From: a virus
Reading direction: 5' to 3' (one strand)
IMG/VR virus record: IMGVR_UViG_3300033150_002389
Length of the DNA: 56,517 nucleotides
The first letter of the stretch is position 1. Each line of letters starts with the position of its first letter. This document shows positions 3,917 to 56,405 of this stretch, one piece after another. Under the pieces are notes generated by a model, which worked only from the letters and a program-made list of their open reading frames with translations, was not told the origin of the DNA and searched no databases. The translations under genes were made by a program, and so were the position numbers.

Positions 3917-4042
3917 AGCACGAAATAGGCGGGGGCGCAGCCCCCTGTGTGGTGGCAGAGGAATAGGCAGCGGTAGGCCCCCAACCCCCTATTGCGCTAT
4001 CCTCTGCCTCTCGCACCATGAAAACCCTACAGGAGGCCTTTC

Positions 4043-4249
4043 ATGGCTCACAACAATGAGGCCCGGGAGACGATCTCCGTCAGCATGCCGGGATGGCTGA
4101 TCGAGCAGCTTGATGCTGCCAGGAACAAGGTGTTCAGGTCTCGCAGCGATTTTGTTTGTGAGGCGATCCGCAAACACATCCTGGCCACGATGGACTCCCC
4201 GGACTTTTGGGAAAAAGTATGCCAGGAACCTGAGGATGAGTCTTATTAA
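4043..4249 (+). CDS. ribbon-helix-helix (CopG/Arc-like) DNA-binding protein
   Basis: AGGAGG 6 nt upstream of ATG; ISVSMPGWLIEQLDAARNKVFRSRSDFVCEAIRKHI matches RHH beta-alpha-alpha pattern. Confidence 0.55.
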   Translation: MAHNNEARETISVSMPGWLIEQLDAARNKVFRSRSDFVCEAIRKHILATMDSPDFWEKVCQEPEDESY

Positions 4250-4402
4250 AAAATAATGAAAAAATTATTTTACAGAAAATATCAAGGATAACATGAAGTT
4301 ATTAAAGTTGACCAAAGGGAAATCTGCCAGAAACAGCAACAATGGACTATTCTATGAAACGACAGTGAATGAGTACTACCTTGCAATATAATCTGACGGG
4401 CA

Positions 4403-4723
4403 TCAGCGCCCATAATTACGGTAGCCTGAACCACGCCTCGAACCAGGGAGTCCTAATAAGCTATCATTATATGGGCTCGGGTTTGATGGGAATAGCCTTC
4501 TTGGGTTGTTTGAGTAGGGCGTTACCCGCCCGGTATTCGGGTTGTAGTTCCCTGGGTATGAGTAGTTATTCATCCGAGTTGAGTCAGGGGTAGTCCGCCA
4601 ATGCCCTTGAACATAGGTTCCGTCGCTACGGTAATAGCCTCTGACCCAGGTTTGGCCTGCTCCAGCATACAATGGCCAGAACAGAACAAAAAGTAAAGCA
4701 GCAAAAACAATAAGCTTTTTCAT
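4403..4723 (-). CDS. small secreted Tyr/Asn/Pro-rich protein with signal peptide
   Basis: N-terminal MKKLIVFAALLFVLFWPLYAGAG is signal-peptide-like. Confidence 0.5.
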   Translation of the reverse strand: MKKLIVFAALLFVLFWPLYAGAGQTWVRGYYRSDGTYVQGHWRTTPDSTRMNNYSYPGNYNPNTGRVTPYSNNPRRLFPSNPSPYNDSLLGLPGSRRGSGYRNYGR

Positions 4724-4956
4724 GAGCGGCCTCCTGCTTTTAAAGGTGTTTAAAGGGTTTAAACTCTGAATACCATAATATCGGAACTAAAAACAACAGG
4801 GAAAAACAGGTGGACGTAGTAGGAGAATTTTTGAATAGACGTCAGCATTGAAGCCCCCGTATTGAGGGTTGGCGGGAAGGTTAAGCTCTTGAAGAGTTTA
4901 ATAATATGCCCAGGGCATAAAATGCAAGCGAAAAACCAAGCCGTTAGAGGTTAGGG

Positions 4957-5229
4957 TTGGTATATCAACTGAGAGACGGGATAGAGTTTTTGAAATCACT
5001 TCCTGATAATTCCGTTGACGGAATTTTCACAGACCCACCGTGGAAACGTGGAACCAAAAAAAAGACATCATTGAGGGGTGCTGATATTTATTTTGCCCCT
5101 TTTGGCTCTCCCTGGCCAAAGAAGATAAGAGGTTTCAAGCCACAAGAGTACTTGAAAGCGTCTACCGGTAAAGTCGCTGGAAAGCTAACCGAAGAGGACG
5201 TCCGCAAAGCCTATGAGTTAGTGGGGTAA
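4957..5229 (+). pseudogene. N-terminal fragment of an N6A/N4C DNA methyltransferase (motif IV DPPW only)
   Basis: LKSLPDNSVDGIFTDPPW is a typical methyltransferase N-terminus, but the ORF stops after 90 aa and no FxGxG motif follows. Confidence 0.4.
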
Positions 5230-5232
5230 ACC

Positions 5233-6306
5233 ATGAGAGAATTCGGAAAAATCCACACAAGGTACTGGTCCTGGGCTCAAGCCCACAACCTCACGGACCA
5301 GGTCAAGCTGATAGGAGCATACCTCCTTTCATGTGAGCACGGGAACTCCTTAGGCTGCTTCCGGCTCCCAAGAAGCTACATTGCGGAGGATCTGGGATAT
5401 AGTGTGGACATCGTGTCCACATCATGTCGACACCTTGAAAAATTAGGTTTTTTGGAGTACTGCGAGACCTCAAAATTTGTGCTGATCAAAAAATACCTCA
5501 AATGGAACCCTCCAAAAAACGAAAGTCACGCCCAGGGAATCTTGTCTATGGTCTCACAAATTATTCCCTCATCCTTTACATTGCTGGAATCACTGATGGA
5601 ATCCCTCAGGAGGTACGGAGGGAAGCATCTTAAAAGACAAGATGTGGACACTTTGTATCACACCTTGTCCCCCATGGTGTCAACACAGTGTCCACAAAGT
5701 GTGGAGACAAAAGAGACAGAGACAGAGATAGAGAAGGAGATAGAGATAGAGACAAAGAAGGAGAAGGAGATAGAGAAGGAGAATATGAGGGCCGCACCTG
5801 CGGACCCTCCTCACCCTAAAAATTCAAAAAAATCCGAGGGAGAGAAATTTCACTTCAAAGTCAAGGTGCCACTCCCAAAGAATTTCTATCCCACCAGCGA
5901 GATGAAAGCTTATGCGAAAAGATATCACATGCCCGAAGAGGAGGTCCCCTTTCAATTCGAAAAGTTTAAAGCTCACCACCAAAAGCTCGAAAGTAAATTC
6001 AACGACTGGATCGCTGCGTGGAGGAACTGGGTGCTCAAGTGGGTGGAGTTCAATAAACCGACCAGCGGTCCGCCCCTCCAGGAGCCAGTACAGAGTTCAC
6101 GGTGTAAAGGTTGCGGAGCTACGAACGTGATGATCGATCTGGAAACCGGATTGTGCGCCAAATGCTTCAGGGCAGTGGCCGCCCCGGATCTAGCTGGACT
6201 GGTGGATAAAGCGACCAAAGGCATGGATATGAGCGAGGAGGAGCGATTGCAGCAGCTGAAAAAACAATCCGAACAGCTCAAATCAAAGGAGGTGCCCTAC
6301 GCATGA
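5233..6306 (+). CDS. hypothetical protein with winged-helix-like N-terminus, Glu-rich dipeptide repeat and C-terminal CxxC-x13-CxxC zinc ribbon; replication-initiator candidate
   Basis: ORF track; CKGCGATNVMIDLETGLCAKC zinc ribbon; position in early region. Confidence 0.5.
   Translation: MREFGKIHTRYWSWAQAHNLTDQVKLIGAYLLSCEHGNSLGCFRLPRSYIAEDLGYSVDIVSTSCRHLEKLGFLEYCETSKFVLIKKYLKWNPPKNESHAQGILSMVSQIIPSSFTLLESLMESLRRYGGKHLKRQDVDTLYHTLSPMVSTQCPQSVETKETETEIEKEIEIETKKEKEIEKENMRAAPADPPHPKNSKKSEGEKFHFKVKVPLPKNFYPTSEMKAYAKRYHMPEEEVPFQFEKFKAHHQKLESKFNDWIAAWRNWVLKWVEFNKPTSGPPLQEPVQSSRCKGCGATNVMIDLETGLCAKCFRAVAAPDLAGLVDKATKGMDMSEEERLQQLKKQSEQLKSKEVPYA
5708..5784. repeat. tandem hexanucleotide repeats (A[CTA][AG][GA]AG, about 11 units) inside the 5233-6306 gene
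   Basis: read directly: acagagacagagatagagaaggagatagagatagagacaaagaaggagaaggagatagagaaggag. Confidence 0.6.
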
Positions 6307-6704
6307 GGTTGCGGGCGACAGAGGAGCAGGTAAGCGAGTATATGGCCGAGTACAACCGGAAGATGGGGTTCGCTGAGACGAGAGAAGACCAGGAAGCGGA
6401 ACCCGGACCGGAGGGGCGTCTCCAAGGCAGGATAATGAAGTGGGCGAAGGACCGGGGGTACCCCTGCCAGTGAAACAGGCAGAGCGCTCGGGTCCGGGGG
6501 ATCCTGACACCTGGTTGGCCGGATTGAATGATTGCCATTGGGGGCGGCCGGTGGCTCGCCTTTGAGCTTAAGTCCAAGAGGGGGAGGTTGACCCCCGCAC
6601 AGAAGGCCATGAAGCTGAATTTTTCAAGGCTGGGTCACATCTACCCGGTCGTAAAAAGCTTTAGAGCGTTCTTAAAACTTTACGAGGAGAGGAGGAACAG
6701 GTGA
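6303..6704 (+). pseudogene. VRR-NUC-like nuclease frame with two in-frame TGA codons (6471-6473, 6525-6527); pseudogene or UGA readthrough gene
   Basis: single frame reads MRLRATEEQVSEYMAEY...IMKWAKDRGYPCQ-TGA-NRQSARVRGILTPGWPD-TGA-MIAIGGGRWLAFELKSKRGRLTPAQKAMKLNFSRLGHIYPVVKSF; PD...ELK resembles PD-(D/E)xK; start overlaps upstream stop as ATGA. Confidence 0.5.
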
Positions 6705-7453
6705 TGGAATTTTTATTCCACGAACTAAGTAGCGCTGTACTGGCTAGTAAATTTCGGAAATGGGCGGAGAATTCTATGTCTCATATTAAGGCTCCTCGCC
6801 CACAAGGAGCGGGGCTTTTACCGGGAAGCACAATAGCACTTTCTGAAGGGGGGCAAACTCCTAACTTCAGCCCTGGTACAGCTCTAGCTATTGCGGCAGG
6901 GTGCGTCTATTACCCTGGCCTACCGTCAGAGCGTTCCAAGTTCGTGCACTCACCCTATACGGGGACCAATTGTGCAAGCCCGGTCGTTGCACCTATACCT
7001 CAGAAACCGAAAAGGCCGAACAAACGGCAGCAACTGAAAGCGCAACGGGCTCCGTATAAATCCGAATGTAAGGCACAATTGCTTTTGAGGGATCTCATCG
7101 GATTTGAGCAGTGGAAGGTATACCGGAGGACGAACCGGGTGATTGTCATAGGTAAGCACAGCTGGATTATCGGCAACGTTTTTGGTGATTACCATAGATC
7201 ACAGCCATTCCTCGCTAAACCCGATGTTGTGAGGCTCGATGGAGTCCGGAGGTGGCGTGGCCACTATCCATCAACCAGCTTTTGCTTCCTGGACAGGTGC
7301 AACGAGCCCATACCTTACACCGACAAGGTCTACGCACTGGTCATGAACCTGATCAACGACGAAAAGGAATTCCTGCGCACCGGTAACCGGATCCGCGAGC
7401 AGAAACTTAAAACGGTCCCGGAATCGGCGGTATACAGCGTTGATAAGTGTTGA
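6701..7453 (+). CDS. hypothetical protein
   Basis: ORF track; C-terminal half protein-like. Confidence 0.4.
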   Translation: MMEFLFHELSSAVLASKFRKWAENSMSHIKAPRPQGAGLLPGSTIALSEGGQTPNFSPGTALAIAAGCVYYPGLPSERSKFVHSPYTGTNCASPVVAPIPQKPKRPNKRQQLKAQRAPYKSECKAQLLLRDLIGFEQWKVYRRTNRVIVIGKHSWIIGNVFGDYHRSQPFLAKPDVVRLDGVRRWRGHYPSTSFCFLDRCNEPIPYTDKVYALVMNLINDEKEFLRTGNRIREQKLKTVPESAVYSVDKC

Positions 7454-7805: not shown

Positions 7806-7866
7806 CGATTTGCCCCGAAAGGGTATCATTCTTCCGCGATTTACCCCGAAAAAGCACCTTTCTTCC
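7806..7866. promoter_or_regulatory. two imperfect 30-bp direct repeats (CGATTTRCCCCGAAARRG...TTCTTCC)
   Basis: 7806-7835 and 7837-7866 read directly; intergenic, upstream of the 7895 gene and the packaging genes. Confidence 0.4.
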
Positions 7867-8549: not shown

Positions 8550-9110
8550 ATGGCAAAGAAAAAAGCGAGGAACCCAAAGCAAATAGCGTGGCTTAAAGCT
8601 TACCTCGACGAAGGCAGTCACACGTTCCTGAACGCCACCGCCTCGGCAATTGCCGCTGGCTATCGTGCCACCAGTCGACACAGCTTTGGGCAAATCGGGT
8701 ATCGGAACCGAAACCTGCTCGCCACCGAAATTGAGAGCTGGCTCGATGAGCATGGCTTTTCCGATAACCGCCTGAAACTCAAACTCCTCAATCTCATTGA
8801 GGCAAAGCAGACCGTCTTCCATAAACTCAAAGGCGTGATCAATGAGAAGGAACTACCCCAGGGCCACCGCTTAGTGGTCGCCTCAGAAGCGGGCGAGGAT
8901 CCCGGCGATTCGCTTATAGGGATCGACGTCGTTGCACTCGAGACTCAGCGCAGAGCCCTGGATATGGCTTTCAAAATCAAAGGCACATACGCCCCGGACA
9001 GGCACGAACACACCGGTAAAGATGGCAAGCCCATTGAGGTTGACGTAAGAGGTGAAATGAACCTCCAGGCACTCAATGAAGCCATCAAAAAAGACCAGGA
9101 AAACCACTGA
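8550..9110 (+). CDS. terS: terminase small subunit
   Basis: N-terminal NATASAIAAGYRATSRHS matches Terminase_2 signature; immediately upstream of the large subunit. Confidence 0.7.
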   Translation: MAKKKARNPKQIAWLKAYLDEGSHTFLNATASAIAAGYRATSRHSFGQIGYRNRNLLATEIESWLDEHGFSDNRLKLKLLNLIEAKQTVFHKLKGVINEKELPQGHRLVVASEAGEDPGDSLIGIDVVALETQRRALDMAFKIKGTYAPDRHEHTGKDGKPIEVDVRGEMNLQALNEAIKKDQENH

Positions 9111-9225
9111 AAACGCTCCGTTGCTACCAATGCGGTCAACTCCCCGCTGGTCGACGCGACCTCCTAAACCCTGAGCGCCGGGTCTTCAGGGCAATTGGTA
9201 GAAACCCGGCTTCATGTAAACAATC

Positions 9226-10980
9226 ATGGAAAATGCGATAAGAAAACCGAGCAACCTTGAGTACGCAAGGCAGGCCTCCGAGTATCTGCCTTTTGCATCG
9301 TATAGCGGTGCACTCCGGATCTACAGGGAGATGCTCAACGACCCTCATCTCGACGAGCAAGTCCTGGCGATAGTAGGTCTGTATGACCGCTTTTTCCTCA
9401 TCACGCAAGTGCTGCGCTTGCAGTCAGTCATAAATCGCACGTGGCGCCCCGAGTGGCTGTACGAGCGGTGCAGGGAAGTTGAAGCTAATCCCGACGGGCA
9501 CCTGGACTTATGGGCACGGGAGCATTTCAAGACGAGTATCATGACCTTCGCAGGTGCAATCCAGGAAATAGCCAAGGACAGCCCGCTTTACCAGGTCTTC
9601 GACCCACCCGACGCCTACTTCCGGGGTCCAGGGCAAGAGATAACCATCGGCATCTTCAGCCACAATACAAAGATAGCGCGCGACTTCGTGGTGCGCGTGA
9701 AGCGCGAACTGGAAAACAATCCGCTCCTCCCGAGATTCTACCCCACGGTGTTCTGGGATCAGCCCAGGAAGCAAGCCCCGGTCTGGTCGAGAGACGACGG
9801 GCTCATCTGCAAGAGAGTTTCCAACCCGAACGAGGCAACCCTTTCCGGCTGGGGCCTAGTTGACGGCCTTCCCACCTCAAAGCACTTCAAACTCATGATC
9901 TATGACGACGTCGTCACGGAGAAATCGGTGACGACACCCGATATGATCCTCAAGACGACAGAGGCGTGGGAGCTCTCCGACTTCCTGTCGTCCCGTATAG
10001 ACGAGAAGACTCCGCCCAGAAAGTGGTACGTGGGAACGAGGTACAATTTTGCCGATACCTATGGGGTTATGTTGGAGAGGGAAGCTGCAACGCCCCGCAT
10101 TTACCCTGCGACCGATAGCGGGACCCCCGATGGGGCGCCGGTGCTGCTGAGCCCGAAGGAGTGGGAGAAGAAAAAGCGAGACAGCTCGCCACGGACGATC
10201 GCCTGCCAGATGCTCCTCAACCCACTGGCCGGCGAAGAACAGGAACTCAAGCCTGAGTGGATCCGCAGGTGGGAAATCAGGCCTGAAACCCTCAACGTGG
10301 CAATCTGTGTTGACCCGGCGTCCTCGAAGAAGAAAGAGTCTTGCAACTCCGCTTTTGCGGTCATTGGCATTGACGCAGCCTGGAACAAGTATCTGCTGGA
10401 TGGTGCGTGTCACAAGATGGATCTGGCAGCCAGATGGAGGATGCTCAAGTATCTGCGGAACAAGTGGATCAAGCAGCCAGGGGTCCAGACCGTCATGGTA
10501 GCCTATGAAAAGTACGGCATGCAGTCCGACATTGAACACTATGAGCAAATGATGCAAATCGAAAAGGCGGCATTTCCGATCACTGAAGTCTCATGGCCCC
10601 GCGATCGGACCCAGGGCGCAAAGGACGACAGGATTCGCCGCCTCATTCCCGACCACCAGAACTGGAAGTTCTTCTACCCCGAAGTGGAGTATGACCGGGT
10701 TGCAGATCAGTTTAATTTCAAGCCCCGGGCGACCAAGCTCCAGGCCGATGCCATCAAAAGAGGGAAGCCCTATCTTGTAGCAACCAGGATCATGCGTAAG
10801 GACGAGAACGGCGAGCTTTACAACGTGGTTGAGCGCGTCATCAAAAACGAGTATCTGTTTTTTCCCGCAACCACATGGAAAGACTTCCTGGACGCTATGA
10901 GCAGGATTTATGACCTGGATATGCGGCCGCCCCAGGTGGTGAGGGAGCAAGACACTTTACCGGAACCAGAGACCGATTAG
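9226..10980 (+). CDS. terL: terminase large subunit
   Basis: 584 aa; ATPase-like N-terminus and RNase-H-like nuclease motif VAICVDPASS...AFAVIGID; gene order terS-terL-portal. Confidence 0.75.
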   Translation: MENAIRKPSNLEYARQASEYLPFASYSGALRIYREMLNDPHLDEQVLAIVGLYDRFFLITQVLRLQSVINRTWRPEWLYERCREVEANPDGHLDLWAREHFKTSIMTFAGAIQEIAKDSPLYQVFDPPDAYFRGPGQEITIGIFSHNTKIARDFVVRVKRELENNPLLPRFYPTVFWDQPRKQAPVWSRDDGLICKRVSNPNEATLSGWGLVDGLPTSKHFKLMIYDDVVTEKSVTTPDMILKTTEAWELSDFLSSRIDEKTPPRKWYVGTRYNFADTYGVMLEREAATPRIYPATDSGTPDGAPVLLSPKEWEKKKRDSSPRTIACQMLLNPLAGEEQELKPEWIRRWEIRPETLNVAICVDPASSKKKESCNSAFAVIGIDAAWNKYLLDGACHKMDLAARWRMLKYLRNKWIKQPGVQTVMVAYEKYGMQSDIEHYEQMMQIEKAAFPITEVSWPRDRTQGAKDDRIRRLIPDHQNWKFFYPEVEYDRVADQFNFKPRATKLQADAIKRGKPYLVATRIMRKDENGELYNVVERVIKNEYLFFPATTWKDFLDAMSRIYDLDMRPPQVVREQDTLPEPETD

Positions 10981-37200: not shown

Positions 37201-40200
37201 TCCGCACGCTTGGGGAAATATGGAAGAACCGCAAAGCTGGGTGGAAAGCTCAAAAGCCAGATACCACGGTCCTCGACCGCCTCATATCAGTGCCGGCACA
37301 TCACTTTGAGAAGGTCCCCGCTTTAAGGAGAATGTACGAGGCGGCTCTTGCCAGGCCCGACACCTACTATGAGTACCTGAATCTCCTAACCAAGAACAGT
37401 AAAGGTGAATACCTTACCAAAAAGCTGGAGGACTTCAGAAAGCGCCACAAACAGGACTACGCTAAGGTCAAGGCGTACCTAGTCAACCGCGACCGCAACC
37501 AAATAGGGTACAGGGTTGAGAAAGACGAGGGTAGCGACCTATGGAAGCTCAGGAAACCAAACGGCCAGTTAGTGGGCAGTTATGACTCTGAGGCCAAGGC
37601 ATGGGGCGCTGCCGTTCAAATGGAGGCTCAGGACCTTAGAAAGCGCGGCTTTCCCGACCAAGCCGTTGACGCGGTGGTGTCCTTCCGGCTAATCATGCAT
37701 AAAGGCTTTAATATCCTGTCAGCTTCGATGCGCGAAATTATCAGCCAATATGAGGAGTCGGGTACGGCACTACCCTCAGTAGCGGTCAGGCTGGACAACA
37801 AAAGGGTAGAAGTTGACCTCAAAACCGCCCTAGCCATGATGGGGGATATGCGAGGTTACTACTTCCCGCGCATAAGAAGGCCCGGGCGATTCGTGCTGTA
37901 CGCCGAAAAGAAGGGCGAAAACCCGATCATGGAATTCTTTGACACCAAAACGCTTCTTGCCAAGCGGCACACAGAACTCCAAAGGAAAGGGTACACCGTC
38001 ACGAAGGATCTCTCCCCCAAGATGCCGGAAGACGTCTTCGAAATGGCAGGCCAGGTCATTGCCATGCAGGCGCAGATCAATCAGGCCCTTGAGCGTATAC
38101 ATGCGCGCGGACTATCTTTAGAGGACTTTAACCTCCAGTGGACCGACAGGATGGTAAGGCCAGGGCTCAGGGACTTCGTTATCACCGGACCGACATCCAA
38201 GAGGATGACACGGGTCTTTAAGGAGCTGGGCGGAAAGTTCTATTCAGCGTATGAAGGGGAGCCGAGGGCCTGGCATTTCTACAACCCTGGCCCGAATTTC
38301 GACAAAAAGGTCGCAAAGGCGCTGGCCAACTCAGTTGGCATAGTTGACCAAGAGGTGCAGGTACTGTTCGCAAAAGCCATGGCCGAGCAAGTGGCCAACA
38401 TCATAAAGGGTCGTGGGCACCGTGCCCACATGATCCAGCGCCAAATGGCCAAGGGCAAGGATGTCTGGATCGGTTATGAGGAGGACCCGGCTATTGCCGC
38501 GGCGAAATATGCGTCGGGGTTGGCCGCAGGGGAGGCTAAAAGGATCGCAGCGCTTGACATGGTTCGAGCGTTCACTGGCACAGACATTACCTGGCAGCAG
38601 TACAAGACCCTTGAGGGCGAGGACGCCACGTATGAGGAGTGGCTCAACATGGTGGAGGACCGGCGGGTCAACCCCACGAAACAGCCCAATGCCTTCAGGG
38701 AAGGCAAAGCGTACCTGCAGGACGTGCTCAGGAACGAAGAGTGGATTGACCGGTTCGTGGGCACAGTCAAGGGCGTGGCGGTGCTGAAATATCTAGGCGG
38801 CCGCATCAGCGCCCCCTTGGTGAACCTCACTGCCATGGTAACGTCAGTCCCGGCAGCTATGGAAGGTATCGCTGGGATCCCGATACACAAGACCTTCCGT
38901 CTCATCGGCAACGCCTCCAGGCTTTACGGCCACTATAAATTCGGTGACAAGGATAAATTACCGCAGCACGTCAAGGACCTTTTTGAGGAGATCGAACAGA
39001 AAGGCTGGCACAAGTCGCAATACAATCGCGAAGCGCTGTCAGTTCTTGAGAGCAAGCTAGGCCGAGGGTGGAACAGGGCAATCGAATGGGCCATGCTCGG
39101 CTTCGGGGCTACCGAGCAACTCAACAGGGTTTCGACAATTGCAGGCACTTACCTTGGATTGAAGCTCCAAACACCCCAAGGGAGCTTTAACCACGACGAA
39201 GCCCTGCGCATTGCAAAGGAGGTCTCAGACAAGGCTCACGGAGTTTACGGAAAGGCGAATATCCCATACCTCGCTAGGGGCGCCAATCCTGCCGCGCAAA
39301 TTGCCAGAATGTTTTACGTATTCCGGACCTTTTCGCACAACTACCTTCTGACCATGAAGCGAGTGTGGGGTCCCGGCTGGAAGCCCGAGCACGCAAAGGC
39401 TTTTTCGTGGATGCTCCTGAGTCCAGCCGTGCTGGCCGGGACTGGGGCGACTGTCTCTACGCCTATCATAACGGCAATCGCTCAAGCCCTGGGCATAGGC
39501 GGAGAAGACCCAGAGGAAAAATTTTACGACTGGTTGAACCGGAATTTTGGCGAATACGCTGAGCGATTCGGCAGGTTCGGCGCTTTCGGTCTCGCAGGCG
39601 TATCCCTTAAGGGTTCGCTTCAGATCGGAATTACCGACATCCCAACGACGATACCCGAAATCCTTGGCGCTCCTGGAAGCGTCATATCTGAAACATTCTA
39701 CCGCGGTCCACAAAGCATTTTGCGTGGCGACGTCCTAAAGGGCATCGAAAATGAACTACCGCTCTTCATGGCCGGAATAGTAAAGGCATATAGAGAGACC
39801 ACAGAGGGGGTGACCACCAGAAACAATGCACCCGTCTTCTGGGGCAATGAACCGCTCCTCCCGGAGACGATTGATGCACTTTACAGAGCTCTCTCCTTTA
39901 ATCCCGCAAGGATCGCGGGGATTAGGGAGAAGCAATGGAAGGAGAGGCGCATTGAACAGAAATATCGAGAAATGAGGACGGATATCTACGCCAAGATCAA
40001 GCGCTTTTACCTGCGTCCCCTATCTGAACGGTCCAAGGCGGATTGGTTGGATATCATCGCTGAAATTCAAGATTACAACGAAGCGGTAAGGGCGCACGGG
40101 CTTGAGCGCCTCGCACCCCTCATCACCCGGAAATCCATACGAAACAATATCAGGCGGGCATTCCGGCCCCCAAAAAGGGAACGCCTAAGGCAGGCGATGC

Positions 40201-40205
40201 CATAA
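31245..40205 (+). CDS. giant polyvalent ejection protein (about 2986 aa) with pyrophosphatase-like, JAB/MPN and zincin HExxH domains
   Basis: TTG start with GAGGAG 8 nt upstream; DGDQVDVFIG (PPase signature-like), LVHNHPTGDPKPGKEDYQIT (JAB), HEYMH (zincin); C-terminal hydrophobic segments. Confidence 0.6.
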   Translation: MPNLNALIQSAEREAQAVTGVKANALTTAASPSTEEKDYQNYLLQYAVTNPENPAHHYDYRSAYRAGVKPIMWDDLPKEVKEEDIQQAITGERTGRPMSREEAIQFYSGHYMWPDQFKLPGHPVPPKKEAINALIAQAAEEAQATLQGTETEYHPWGAAKMTVYDALSGLSALPRTIGMGETARNVAEFYDKRAEADPDIREFKKASEQGRESIWTEALGSAGPTAMALGMRFIPYVGFPLAASYFWHLNKDEVKDLALAKGADEKTAERISWIGGTVNSALDVLGLEAIAGKMPFLRGPVKSVKHRLVGAAVRLMASTGGEGLTEGMQEVVGELSSEYAASKDVREFLDRVSQKQWWDKALAKAEKSLKVGSMMGAVFGGAASVAETRLQKRLKPEKATKPLEAPKDLSELIEEAEKEYTEILQQEVPRDRKEEERILRRERAQRQGRKEEEARRPVPHEGRGRGEAGAGGVFQGPQPTRPTEEAVRVEEEYQKGDRVETPEGAGEVLRVAPAETSGEEKLTVKLDEGETVEVSPAEEKVEKPSPPPEEVDEAAQEAEPAPTEAQKEAGNYKKGHINIQGMDISIENPKGSIREGVDKQGKKWKSKVAAHYGYIRRTEGKDGDQVDVFIGPRPETNRVFVIDQVDPETGLFDEHKAMVGFPTKKMAKTAYLRSYTKDWKGLGAITEMTVNQFKDWIRTGDSSAPLGLKEKRKVAKDATRGAAGNLLIKTSDQTIYESRQPVHALMLGEFGVKPEDVIDTGLIDKTGKEMWAGSKEIKPLTEEVAAAVREQRKREQQKKRAQRAAKAKTFRQWVALTGGINPQDKTWRGEIRDMRYTMNAAGKKVPAPGWPVGIWNRKARGVDERTHDAIEAGWLPTAATEDDFMQALEQNITTKITKAGAQEDVDTVVKEEEDKLEQEYERELARLKVKIKEEWDAGGQEYTPADLEGAARELEAYLAANERDEIKAASIEELEEIWRLFDEAVKPEPPVVEQALDEAWKEISQEDQDWLDKELGLKPAEEKQAERPPARKSPPESKSIDDAIGWVHAVQQSVWDPTEKKWHYTPREKIIRAIEKAKKAGARVERLPGTGRESAETWKLYDDEKGLVYVLQREPNGRTTWTSRRIPPSASKKSYEDIVKQLEAKGFYGTIDRLKRGLITLDEAHKELLGARLKIKVVPLNPEEFAAELKAKGVGRQESWSHWIRKTGLKPGMDAKDWYKIYDSVTLSKLEAAQKPKEVEKAQPREKAARPALELKPTEPTPQERVELLRAKGEIEKPIKAYREGDREIIKLPDGRKLIRGRDSEGRIYYEVEGSWEGLKELGFDPETFTIDQAKAARVFQQYLKPKAAIPKEKVKPPTTGKQKSLLAPEKGETLDIFERGVDKIGESGAQYIYAPTTPQEQYSLFDFKPAERQEDRKVPPRRRVRVSTTGRIRAAGELVSGPEDVAALLAFLRKSPQEFLYTVTTDKEGGILEIHKYAKGHSAGAIANPVELAGRILNIPGASEAYLVHNHPTGDPKPGKEDYQITSSVRSLLEAGDVELTSLILGGTEYVEMRPGEVAETTRKIRPRIRKISLPVKERSLLLGGAPQTRIVDSEDALKALKEQFNNDDGVMLLDRKNRVLAFVPFIKGRSMKQTTADVLRIAEATNASGMIVNNSVLTQARSDYVNALWNGIEGLTIVDVFWEAQSWASRQGRGKGPTKYATLLSETKLALRGEQPYRLSPRQFRNIKRTAKLVHSWLEKAGAPPEVLERIDVELKPIISLSGKNIAKSVKEWQEQGMGIRQIFGATTFDDYRAIMELALSLQNLKGLERTTYHEYMHVAQRWLLTKSDAEHLIKYFGSEEAAADAFAEFMVNRSSLKDKPNMIRAIMMRLRRYLQIIRNGLKGQGFTRPEDIWGKMVTGQYVPHFGAPEIEETTTAFSLAEPPGKEAEVEPRIVPTKHFSGTFDDWNRHVIETWEKYGGRKGTFQAEEKKYEQGFSRGSLGPLRTLGEIWKNRKAGWKAQKPDTTVLDRLISVPAHHFEKVPALRRMYEAALARPDTYYEYLNLLTKNSKGEYLTKKLEDFRKRHKQDYAKVKAYLVNRDRNQIGYRVEKDEGSDLWKLRKPNGQLVGSYDSEAKAWGAAVQMEAQDLRKRGFPDQAVDAVVSFRLIMHKGFNILSASMREIISQYEESGTALPSVAVRLDNKRVEVDLKTALAMMGDMRGYYFPRIRRPGRFVLYAEKKGENPIMEFFDTKTLLAKRHTELQRKGYTVTKDLSPKMPEDVFEMAGQVIAMQAQINQALERIHARGLSLEDFNLQWTDRMVRPGLRDFVITGPTSKRMTRVFKELGGKFYSAYEGEPRAWHFYNPGPNFDKKVAKALANSVGIVDQEVQVLFAKAMAEQVANIIKGRGHRAHMIQRQMAKGKDVWIGYEEDPAIAAAKYASGLAAGEAKRIAALDMVRAFTGTDITWQQYKTLEGEDATYEEWLNMVEDRRVNPTKQPNAFREGKAYLQDVLRNEEWIDRFVGTVKGVAVLKYLGGRISAPLVNLTAMVTSVPAAMEGIAGIPIHKTFRLIGNASRLYGHYKFGDKDKLPQHVKDLFEEIEQKGWHKSQYNREALSVLESKLGRGWNRAIEWAMLGFGATEQLNRVSTIAGTYLGLKLQTPQGSFNHDEALRIAKEVSDKAHGVYGKANIPYLARGANPAAQIARMFYVFRTFSHNYLLTMKRVWGPGWKPEHAKAFSWMLLSPAVLAGTGATVSTPIITAIAQALGIGGEDPEEKFYDWLNRNFGEYAERFGRFGAFGLAGVSLKGSLQIGITDIPTTIPEILGAPGSVISETFYRGPQSILRGDVLKGIENELPLFMAGIVKAYRETTEGVTTRNNAPVFWGNEPLLPETIDALYRALSFNPARIAGIREKQWKERRIEQKYREMRTDIYAKIKRFYLRPLSERSKADWLDIIAEIQDYNEAVRAHGLERLAPLITRKSIRNNIRRAFRPPKRERLRQAMP
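32533..32742 (+). CDS. embedded +1-frame ORF, 69-aa basic protein
   Basis: GTG with AGGAGG 6 nt upstream; GC3-rich codons in this frame while the host frame is low complexity with A-ending codons. Confidence 0.4.
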   Translation: MIVKRKKGYYVVSEHKGKDGKRRRLGGPYPTREEAEERLEQVEYFKARSRHAQRKKRSASRRNIRKETE

Positions 40206-40248
40206 GATGCCATAAAACGCCATAAACTGCCACGACTTGCCATACTTT
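40199..40248. repeat. five tandem 10-bp repeats (consensus GCCATAAnnT) overlapping the stop codon of the giant gene
   Basis: gccataagat gccataaaac gccataaact gccacgactt gccatacttt read directly. Confidence 0.55.
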
Positions 40249-56340: not shown

Positions 56341-56405
56341 GCTTGGCTTGGCTTGGCGCGGCCGGACCCGGCTCGGCCGGGCTCGGCATGGCCGGGCTAG
56401 GCGTG
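56341..56405. repeat. GC-rich degenerate direct repeats (GCTTGGC x3, GGCTCGGCCGGGCTCGGCATGGCCGGGCTAGGC)
   Basis: read directly; related to the 598-676 block. Confidence 0.5.

Follow-up and report, generated by a model that had tools for sequence, protein, structure and literature searches.

A hexanucleotide tract beside iteron-like boxes in a predicted phage replication-initiator gene: a candidate origin inside the gene

We analysed a 56,517-nucleotide stretch of viral DNA (IMG/VR virus record IMGVR_UViG_3300033150_002389; the whole stretch is called the window), in which the plus-strand open reading frame (ORF) 5233-6306 is predicted to encode a phage replication initiator. Inside this gene, short iteron-like boxes run up to a tract of 12 hexanucleotide repeats, and we consider it probable, with some reserve, that boxes and tract belong to a replication origin of the lambda/SPP1 type. 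Judged from the sequence, a structure model and the analogy to known origins, the boxes would be the iterons of this origin, and the tract would be its strand-opening or entry element, which at the same time encodes a protein linker and is prone to slippage. An earlier note on this DNA had suggested the lambda O/ori arrangement with the hexamers as iterons. An origin inside the initiator gene is still the best reading, but the hexamers hold the place of lambda's AT-rich segment and not that of its iterons. The elements concerned are the following:

5233..6306, plus strand: predicted replication-initiator gene, 357 residues, with winged-helix N-domain, disordered linker and C-terminal module (PHROG 1701, AlphaFold2, Foldseek)
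5403..5432, no strand assigned: iteron-like cluster A with 11-bp spacing (TGTGGACA at 5403, TGTCCACA at 5414, palindromic TGTCGACA at 5425)
5643..5707, no strand assigned: iteron-like cluster B (TGTGGACA at 5643, then the 11-bp-spaced TGTCAACA at 5678, TGTCCACA at 5689 and TGTGGAGA at 5700)
5677..5865, plus strand: predicted disordered linker, residues 149-211 (predicted local distance difference test score, pLDDT, below 50)
5710..5783, plus strand: hexamer tract of 12 A-N-R-R-A-G units, purine-rich on the coding strand and translated in the predicted disordered interdomain linker
5815..5835, no strand assigned: A-rich run CCTAAAAATTCAAAAAAATCC, about 30 bp 3' of the tract, where duplex stability reaches another local minimum
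5863..6306, plus strand: C-terminal module, X29-like at residues 211-284 and with a zinc-ribbon-like motif at residues 291-311

When the window was scanned with Tandem Repeats Finder, an array of period 6 with 12.3 copies and 77% matches was detected at 5710-5783 (periods 18 and 30 also scored). Read in the frame of ORF 5233-6306, it consists of 12 hexamers (5710-5781) in the order AAAGAG, ACAGAG, ACAGAG, ATAGAG, AAGGAG, ATAGAG, ATAGAG, ACAAAG, AAGGAG, AAGGAG, ATAGAG and AAGGAG. All 12 units match the form A-N-R-R-A-G, so that the previous description of about 11 such units at 5708-5784 was essentially right. This is the only run of four or more A-N-R-R-A-G hexamers in the window, and none of 200 shuffles gave one. 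The tract encodes residues 160-183 (KETETEIEKEIEIETKKEKEIEKE), and each of its 11 Glu codons is GAG, compared with 16 GAG and 10 GAA in the rest of the gene. Growth by duplication of a DNA unit fits this uniform codon usage better than independent codon choice. With 90% purines on one strand the tract has the highest purine skew of all 72-mers in the window, and its duplex is less stable than the window average (z=+2.3). It thus lies directly beside the boxes as a strand-biased segment of reduced stability, yet it has only 58% A+T and is not the stability minimum of the window. The 40-mer that starts at 5820, in the region of the A-rich run, has 70% A+T and a stability z of +2.2.

Exact copies of TGTSSACA (TGTCCACA/TGTGGACA) occur four times in the window, every one of them in the initiator gene. 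When one mismatch was allowed, 7 distinct sites were found in 305 bp, where 0.18 were expected (Poisson P ~1e-9). Autocorrelation of the box region gave peaks at lag 11 (0.41) and lag 22 (0.43). Cluster A falls in the predicted recognition-helix coding region (residues 57-67, SVDIVSTSCRH; surrounding span 5399-5433), and cluster B ends 3 bp 5' of the hexamer tract. Near the domain boundary the gene carries 8-bp boxes at 11-bp spacing, that is, helically phased repeats of the kind expected for binding sites. The boxes fit iterons because of their dyad-like sequence, their helical phasing and their confinement to the initiator gene. The hexamers do not, since a 6-bp period is no helical-phase spacing and the 11-bp-phased TGTCCACA/TGTGGACA/TGTCGACA boxes adjoin them. 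Thus, the hexamers are probably not the iterons, against what had been proposed, and the sequence makes cluster B the most likely candidate for the initiator-binding sites. The two clusters are about 250 bp apart, a distance that could allow DNA looping. Across the family of related proteins described below, the conserved peptide [ID]TVS at the recognition helix is written by GACACnGTGTC-like DNA, which is the palindrome type of many family iterons. A clean covariation between iteron type and recognition-helix residues was not found across the family.

The gene product matched best to the profile of PHROG 1701 ('DnaD-like helicase loader', 4e-28), and replisome-organizer and O-like initiator families matched more weakly. 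Membership in the lambda O family was not detected: Pfam Phage_rep_O gave no match, and the sole O-like match was phrog_345 (4e-4). A Pfam HTH_36 match at residues 19-74 stayed below threshold, phrog_5968 matched the tract region alone, and a profile search against Protein Data Bank sequences yielded nothing relevant, only spurious matches to proteasome activators. An AlphaFold2 model built with 14 homologs had a pLDDT above 90 for residues 6-145, below 50 for residues 149-211 (stretches 149-179 and 181-211) and moderate confidence beyond. These values place the tract in the predicted disordered interdomain linker. In Foldseek, the N-domain resembled MarR/DtxR-type winged-helix DNA-binding proteins; these matches were weak (best E 1.6e-3) and indicate the general class only. 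For residues 211-284 there is a resemblance to a Vibrio phage X29 protein ('replication initiation O-like'), although the N-domains of the two proteins differ, and a zinc-ribbon-like CxxC-N13-CxxC motif follows at residues 291-311 (nt 6103-6165, CKGCGATNVMIDLETGLCAKC).

The genomic neighbourhood of homologs in cultured phages points in the same direction. The homolog of Klebsiella phage ST13-OXA48phi12.4 has a ParB-like gene on one side and a DnaC-like gene on the other, that of Acinetobacter phage A3926.3 carries the annotation 'DNA replication protein O' and precedes a 'replication protein' gene, and that of Geobacillus virus E2, a 'replisome organizer' by annotation, precedes a DnaB-like helicase gene. 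Profile matches, predicted structure and homolog synteny agree on an N-terminal DNA-binding domain joined to a separate C-terminal module, and on the strength of the PHROG 1701 match, the O-like and replisome-organizer matches and this synteny the gene, already named as a replication-initiator candidate before, is predicted to encode a phage replication initiator.

To see how far the layout is shared, we compared 89 loci with genes for N-domain relatives, of which 79 lay on viral contigs and 10 in bacterial genomes or metagenome-assembled genomes (MAGs), and added three loci of the closest homologs and three of cultured phages. Some of the relatives sit in MAGs of Desulfobacteraceae and Deltaproteobacteria. 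A period-6 tract scoring at least 10 was present in 61 of 90 loci, and when all periods were scanned in 84 non-identical ORFs, the median start of the period-6 array was residue 155. In almost all tract loci, 11-12-bp repeats reach up to the tract (for instance CCTTTCGAAAC, GGAACGGTTTC, GATACCCTATC and GGGTGTCCGACACCC), and throughout these loci the iterons are bordered directly on their 3' side by the tract. For the 90 nt 5' of the tract, the autocorrelation in 56 non-identical loci was 0.40, 0.38 and 0.35 at lags 11, 12 and 22, respectively, and these peaks were absent from N-terminal and downstream control regions of the same loci. Relative L091 carries the box type of the window (GTGTCGACAC) followed by five copies of GACAGA. 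The layout was also found in the cultured Klebsiella, Acinetobacter and Geobacillus phages.

At the protein level, an exhaustive profile-free search gave 3150 cluster representatives of the N-domain family at E<=1e-3. We surveyed the 137 best representatives (each at least 230 residues long, mutual identity at most 50%) and found a perfect period-2 residue run of six or more residues in 62 of them; 58 of these 62 runs begin between residues 125 and 230. A word-indexed protein search retrieved 14 homologs, of which the closest shared 58% identity over the N-domain. At the DNA level, positions 4700-6700 gave no match among 50,697 phage records, and the Klebsiella homolog gave none in all complete E. 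coli genomes. The homolog P0012 carries a DRDRDRD...TETETETE run, which might be a single unit that one gene reads in two frames.

Across the family it is the DNA unit that recurs rather than the peptide, as far as can be read from these genes. The encoded dipeptides are diverse (QE, PE/EP, TE, KE, HE/HD, GT/TG, VA/AV, TV, NQ, KD, TD, PD, poly-S). In 37 of 63 loci each unit contains one CAG trinucleotide, CAG being 6.6 times as frequent as in the remaining ORF, and several units are read in two frames across loci: CAGGAA as QE or GT/TG, CCAGAA as PE/EP or NQ, CAGTAG as SS or AV/VA and CAGGAG as QE or GA. The tract may offer a short one-strand motif beside the putative duplex sites, although this motif is not universal. 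Poly-Ser tracts are written by alternating AGC and AGT. When the best tandem array of each ORF was determined, the primitive period was 6 in 46 of 80 cases and 3 only once; periods 9 and 15 never occurred, and the remaining arrays mostly had periods of 11, 12 or 22-24 (iterons or doubled hexamers). Loci L074 and L078 carry an array of period 7 at the tract position (TATCAGA, about 7 copies, ORF nt 436-485, read SDISNQI), and their relative L076 has GTATCA with period 6. Similarly, an array of period 8 (AGAGAATA) occupies the tract position in L027 and L043 (ORF nt ~480-550). Periods that are not multiples of 3 cannot stem from selection on a repeated peptide. Moreover, the mean purine content of the coding strand was 0.69 in the tracts and 0.53 in other parts of the ORFs, in 47 of 56 loci the tract was less stable per bp than the remainder of its ORF, and the least stable point of the mean family profile was the 3' end of the tract (about 1 standard deviation, SD). 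In terms of sequence, the repeat, purine and stability results favour a constraint on the DNA of the tract without proving one.

The main rival explanation is that the tract is a linker and nothing else, a dipeptide spacer which was made by slippage between the DNA-binding and the C-terminal domain and is tolerated there without any DNA function. We consider this rather unlikely, but it accounts for a good part of the data. The tract lies in a region of pLDDT below 50 between two folded parts, the dipeptides of the family vary widely, the copy number drifts among close relatives, and the tract marks a junction of modules beyond which at least 20 unrelated C-termini occur. The (EP)n/(KP)n linkers of TonB are well-known dipeptide-repeat linkers, and they resemble the present case as unstructured spacers that are encoded by tandem repeats in frame and vary in length by slippage. 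They differ in that the unit of the window family recurs across frames, keeps a fixed position relative to the iterons and occasionally shows a period not divisible by 3. A linker without DNA function leaves unexplained why period 6 dominates so strongly, why poly-Ser has a DNA period of 6 nt, why arrays of period 7 and 8 stand at the tract position, why CAG-containing units appear in different frames and why the tract always abuts the iterons on their 3' side. Nor does it explain the perfect repeats that are kept across N-domains of just 25-40% identity.

Length variation by slippage, which had been offered as the alternative to an origin, is observed at the family level, where near-identical loci differ by whole hexamers. 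The tracts of L038 and L059 measure 27 and 33 nt within flanks that are 98% and 96% identical, those of L071 and L072 measure 42 and 48 nt, and those of L035 and L039 measure 23 and 69 nt. These three pairs characterize the tract as a slippage-prone coding microsatellite, and the unit type itself changes among L019, L022 and L024. The tract of the window (74 nt) is the joint longest in the family (range 16-74, median 32) and among the most degenerate; because of its imperfect repeats (77% matches) its slippage rate should be lower. Beyond the tract, the C-termini of the relatives fall into at least 20 unrelated clusters, and the CAGGAA unit class alone is joined to at least 7 of them. Thus, N-domain, iterons and tract behave as one module, and the C-terminal modules are exchangeable. 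The module junction always lies at the tract, and the shared short repeats may make the tract a site of module exchange. The joining of at least 20 unrelated C-terminal modules to one N-domain family at this junction bears on the shuffling of phage replication modules.

For an origin inside the gene, the following mechanism can be proposed. The N-domain of the initiator would bind the 11-bp-phased boxes and form a multimeric complex. The adjoining tract, with its purine strand and lower stability, would be the site at which the duplex opens and the host helicase and primase enter, as in lambda's AT-rich segment. Its short repeated motif may offer single-strand contacts to the initiator or start sites to the primase. 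As a microsatellite, the tract would gain or lose whole hexamers, so that the length of the linker changes and the frame is kept.

The closest model is oriλ, which consists of iterons and an AT-rich tract in the central part of gene O; the AT-rich part is needed for unwinding, and lambda O binds AT-rich single-stranded DNA (PMC7466680). In the lambda genome (NC_001416), the annotated iterons (39034-39118) encode residues 117-145 of O, and the next segment ACAAAAGACACTATTACAAAAGAAAAAAGAAAAGAT encodes residues 145-163 ('DTKDTITKEKRKD') with 73% A+T over 56 nt and a purine-rich coding strand. As proposed for the window, the origin is placed centrally in the initiator gene, where the region between the domains is encoded, and the iterons are followed on their 3' side by a purine-biased, less stable segment. 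Residue positions are similar (window boxes at residues 137-159, tract at 160-183), so that order, polarity, residue position and strand bias run in parallel, and both peptides are rich in T, K, E and D. There are also clear differences. The window protein lacks significant sequence membership in the O family (phrog_345, 4e-4), the lambda iterons are dyads of 18-19 bp about 20-24 bp apart and not 8-bp boxes at 11-bp spacing, and the lambda segment is non-repetitive with 73% A+T, whereas the window segment is a translated period-6 microsatellite with 58% A+T.

A second model is oriL of SPP1, which lies inside gene 38 and combines AB boxes bound by G38P with an adjacent AT-rich DNA unwinding element (DUE) (PMC5737612). 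The proposed layout is alike, with the origin inside a replisome-organizer gene and binding repeats next to an unwinding element. The Geobacillus virus E2 homolog, as a 'replisome organizer' encoded before a DnaB-like helicase, adds to this likeness. The candidate unwinding element of the window is different in being a hexamer repeat that is translated as a linker. Unwinding elements with repeats that are bound as single strands have been described for DnaA (13-mers, DnaA-trios) and for TrfA and RepE (13-mers of RK2 and F) (PMC4980987). Here too, a short one-strand motif is repeated beside the predicted duplex sites of the initiator, but the period in the window family is 6 (at times 7 or 8) and not 3 or 13, and the initiator has no AAA+ domain.

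From these comparisons we tentatively put forward, as a possibility that we hold with less confidence than an origin inside the gene as such, that the tract represents an undescribed type of origin element. It would be a counterpart of the DnaA-trio and DUE repeats, with a period of 6 (or 7 and 8) and a position next to the iterons, in several thousand genes of winged-helix initiators from Proteobacteria to Firmicutes. Such an element may serve as an array for single-strand contacts or priming, overprinted by a linker, with its motif kept across frames. In the literature that we searched, from which most subscription journals were missing, we found no account of hexamer tracts that adjoin the iterons of an initiator gene.

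Two further explanations assign to the repeats a DNA role of a different kind. According to the first, the hexamers are binding sites of the initiator after all, closely packed iteron half-sites through which the initiator complex would spread beyond the 11-bp boxes. We consider this improbable. In several loci the unit does contain the 5-nt iteron half-site of the same locus: GAAAC in GAAACA (L050), GGAAC in CAGGAAC (L015, L044 and L090, the latter from the Klebsiella phage), GATAC in GATACA (L064, L092) and GTATC in GTATCA (L076). The unit GAGACA of the window and L091 has GACA in common with the GGACA/TCGACA boxes. Sharing of 5-mers between unit and iterons amounted to 1.18 compared with 0.87±0.11 in permuted sets, and 9 of 2000 permutations reached this value, which is a weak signal. 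In many loci, however, unit and iterons have no 5-mer in common and a few loci drive the effect; no such likeness is seen in Geobacillus E2 (unit AAAGAA, iterons GATAC) or in several PE-type tracts. In addition, a 6-bp spacing puts neighbouring units on nearly opposite faces of the helix and too close together for one winged-helix domain per site when the DNA is duplex. A precedent comes from the origins of Staphylococcus aureus pathogenicity islands (SaPI), in which penta- and hexanucleotide iterons are bound by the winged-helix domain of the initiator (PMC9371898). Very short repeats and a winged-helix initiator are common to both systems. In contrast, the SaPI iterons are found downstream of rep, oppositely oriented on the two sides of an AT-rich centre, the SaPI initiator is a self-loading helicase, and the window additionally has separate 11-bp-phased boxes.

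The second of these explanations is that the opened tract would be an array of primase start sites, templating primers for synthesis that leads away from the iterons. Coding-strand CAG and TAG correspond to 5'-CTG and 5'-CTA on the complement, the preferred initiation trinucleotides of proteobacterial DnaG, which starts primers on d(CTG) and, to a slightly lesser extent, on d(CTA) (PMC2978363). CAG is the commonest tract trinucleotide of the family, and the complement of the window tract (74 nt) contains CTG twice and CTA four times. This excess is small (6 sites where about 2.3 would be expected). CAG is absent from many tracts (e.g. AAGGAG, GAGAAA, CACGAA and, in the Firmicute phage, AAAGAA), and in 7 loci CTG is on the coding strand instead. 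Furthermore, the DnaG preference may not be that of the likely host lineage, given the relatives in Desulfobacteraceae and Deltaproteobacteria MAGs. As an explanation of the tract in general, priming thus has only a slight chance of being right.

At the end of the tract, AAGGAG-N5-ATG (5775-5787, GAGAAGGAGAATATGAGG) places a canonical ribosome-binding site before an ATG that is in frame (M186). A start at this codon could yield a C-terminal-only isoform of 172 residues; the feature is not conserved in relatives. A role of the repeats in RNA or translation, in which Shine-Dalgarno-like AGGAG repeats pause ribosomes between the domains or drive the internal start at M186, would draw on this arrangement, and nested initiator isoforms such as TrfA-44/33 of RK2 are known elsewhere. 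Most relatives, however, have no ATG after the tract, and units such as CCAGAA, CAGTAG and GTAGCC are not Shine-Dalgarno-like, which makes this role highly improbable.

Several points weigh against an origin in which the tract acts as opening element. For the gene of the window as for all family members, origin activity, binding and unwinding are predicted from sequence alone. The tract of the window has just 58% A+T and the family tracts have a mean of 50% G+C, which is not the composition of a classical AT-rich DUE, the least stable site of the window is 4223-4318 and not the tract, and the family-wide stability effect does not exceed 1 SD. Dipeptide-repeat linkers are common in bacterial proteins, and a period-6 tract at a domain boundary therefore needs no role at the DNA level. 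A Glu-rich coding sequence brings a purine-biased composition with it. The shared unit in different frames could be a tolerated microsatellite that was inherited through frameshifts and module swaps. About one third of the loci lack a clear tract, and since the loci are related phylogenetically, their counts are not independent events. Finally, the tract of the window is degenerate and contains CAG in only 2 of its 12 units.

If an origin inside the gene is nevertheless the correct interpretation, origins of many uncultured temperate phages could be located from sequence alone by the combination of a winged-helix initiator gene, 11-bp-phased boxes and a short-period tract. It would also be a clear case of dual coding, in which one microsatellite is both protein linker and origin DNA, and it would point to repeats as an alternative to the classical AT-rich unwinding element. 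If the tract is a linker only, the finding is an ordinary one, and the adjacent boxes remain a good origin candidate.

Other parts of the window were inspected as well. The intergenic AT-rich segment 4223-4318 was considered as an alternative origin and was rejected: the box search gave no hit there and the window-wide tandem scan no array, although no dedicated repeat search was made in this segment. A promoter and terminator scan of 4000-7000 gave nothing above chance. GC skew across the window tracks gene orientation and did not locate the origin.

The surroundings of the initiator gene resemble the early region of a temperate phage, with a Cro/CI-type regulator at 2108-2671 on the minus strand and terminase subunits at 8550-10980. 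Beside 4223-4318 and among plus-strand early genes, a minus-strand ORF of 106 residues (4403-4723) is preceded by a strong ribosome-binding site and begins like a signal peptide (MKKLIVFAALLFVLFWPLYAGA); this ORF may represent a moron-type insert. Just 5' of the initiator gene, an ORF of 90 residues with a TTG start (4957-5229) matches just a part of the DNA-methyltransferase PHROGs 6025 and 67; its product is probably either a fragment or a small protein of one domain type. Near the left end, a minus-strand ORF (966-1598) encodes a 210-residue protein with an NYN (nuclease) domain (PHROG 5783, 2e-58). Three more tandem arrays were reported by Tandem Repeats Finder: one of period 31 with 2 copies at 7806-7866, one of period 15 with 3.5 copies at the right end of the window (56350-56402), and one of period 10 (ATGCCATAAA) with 3.6 copies at 40197-40232, in a low-GC stretch (40-43 kb) where the cumulative GC skew turns.

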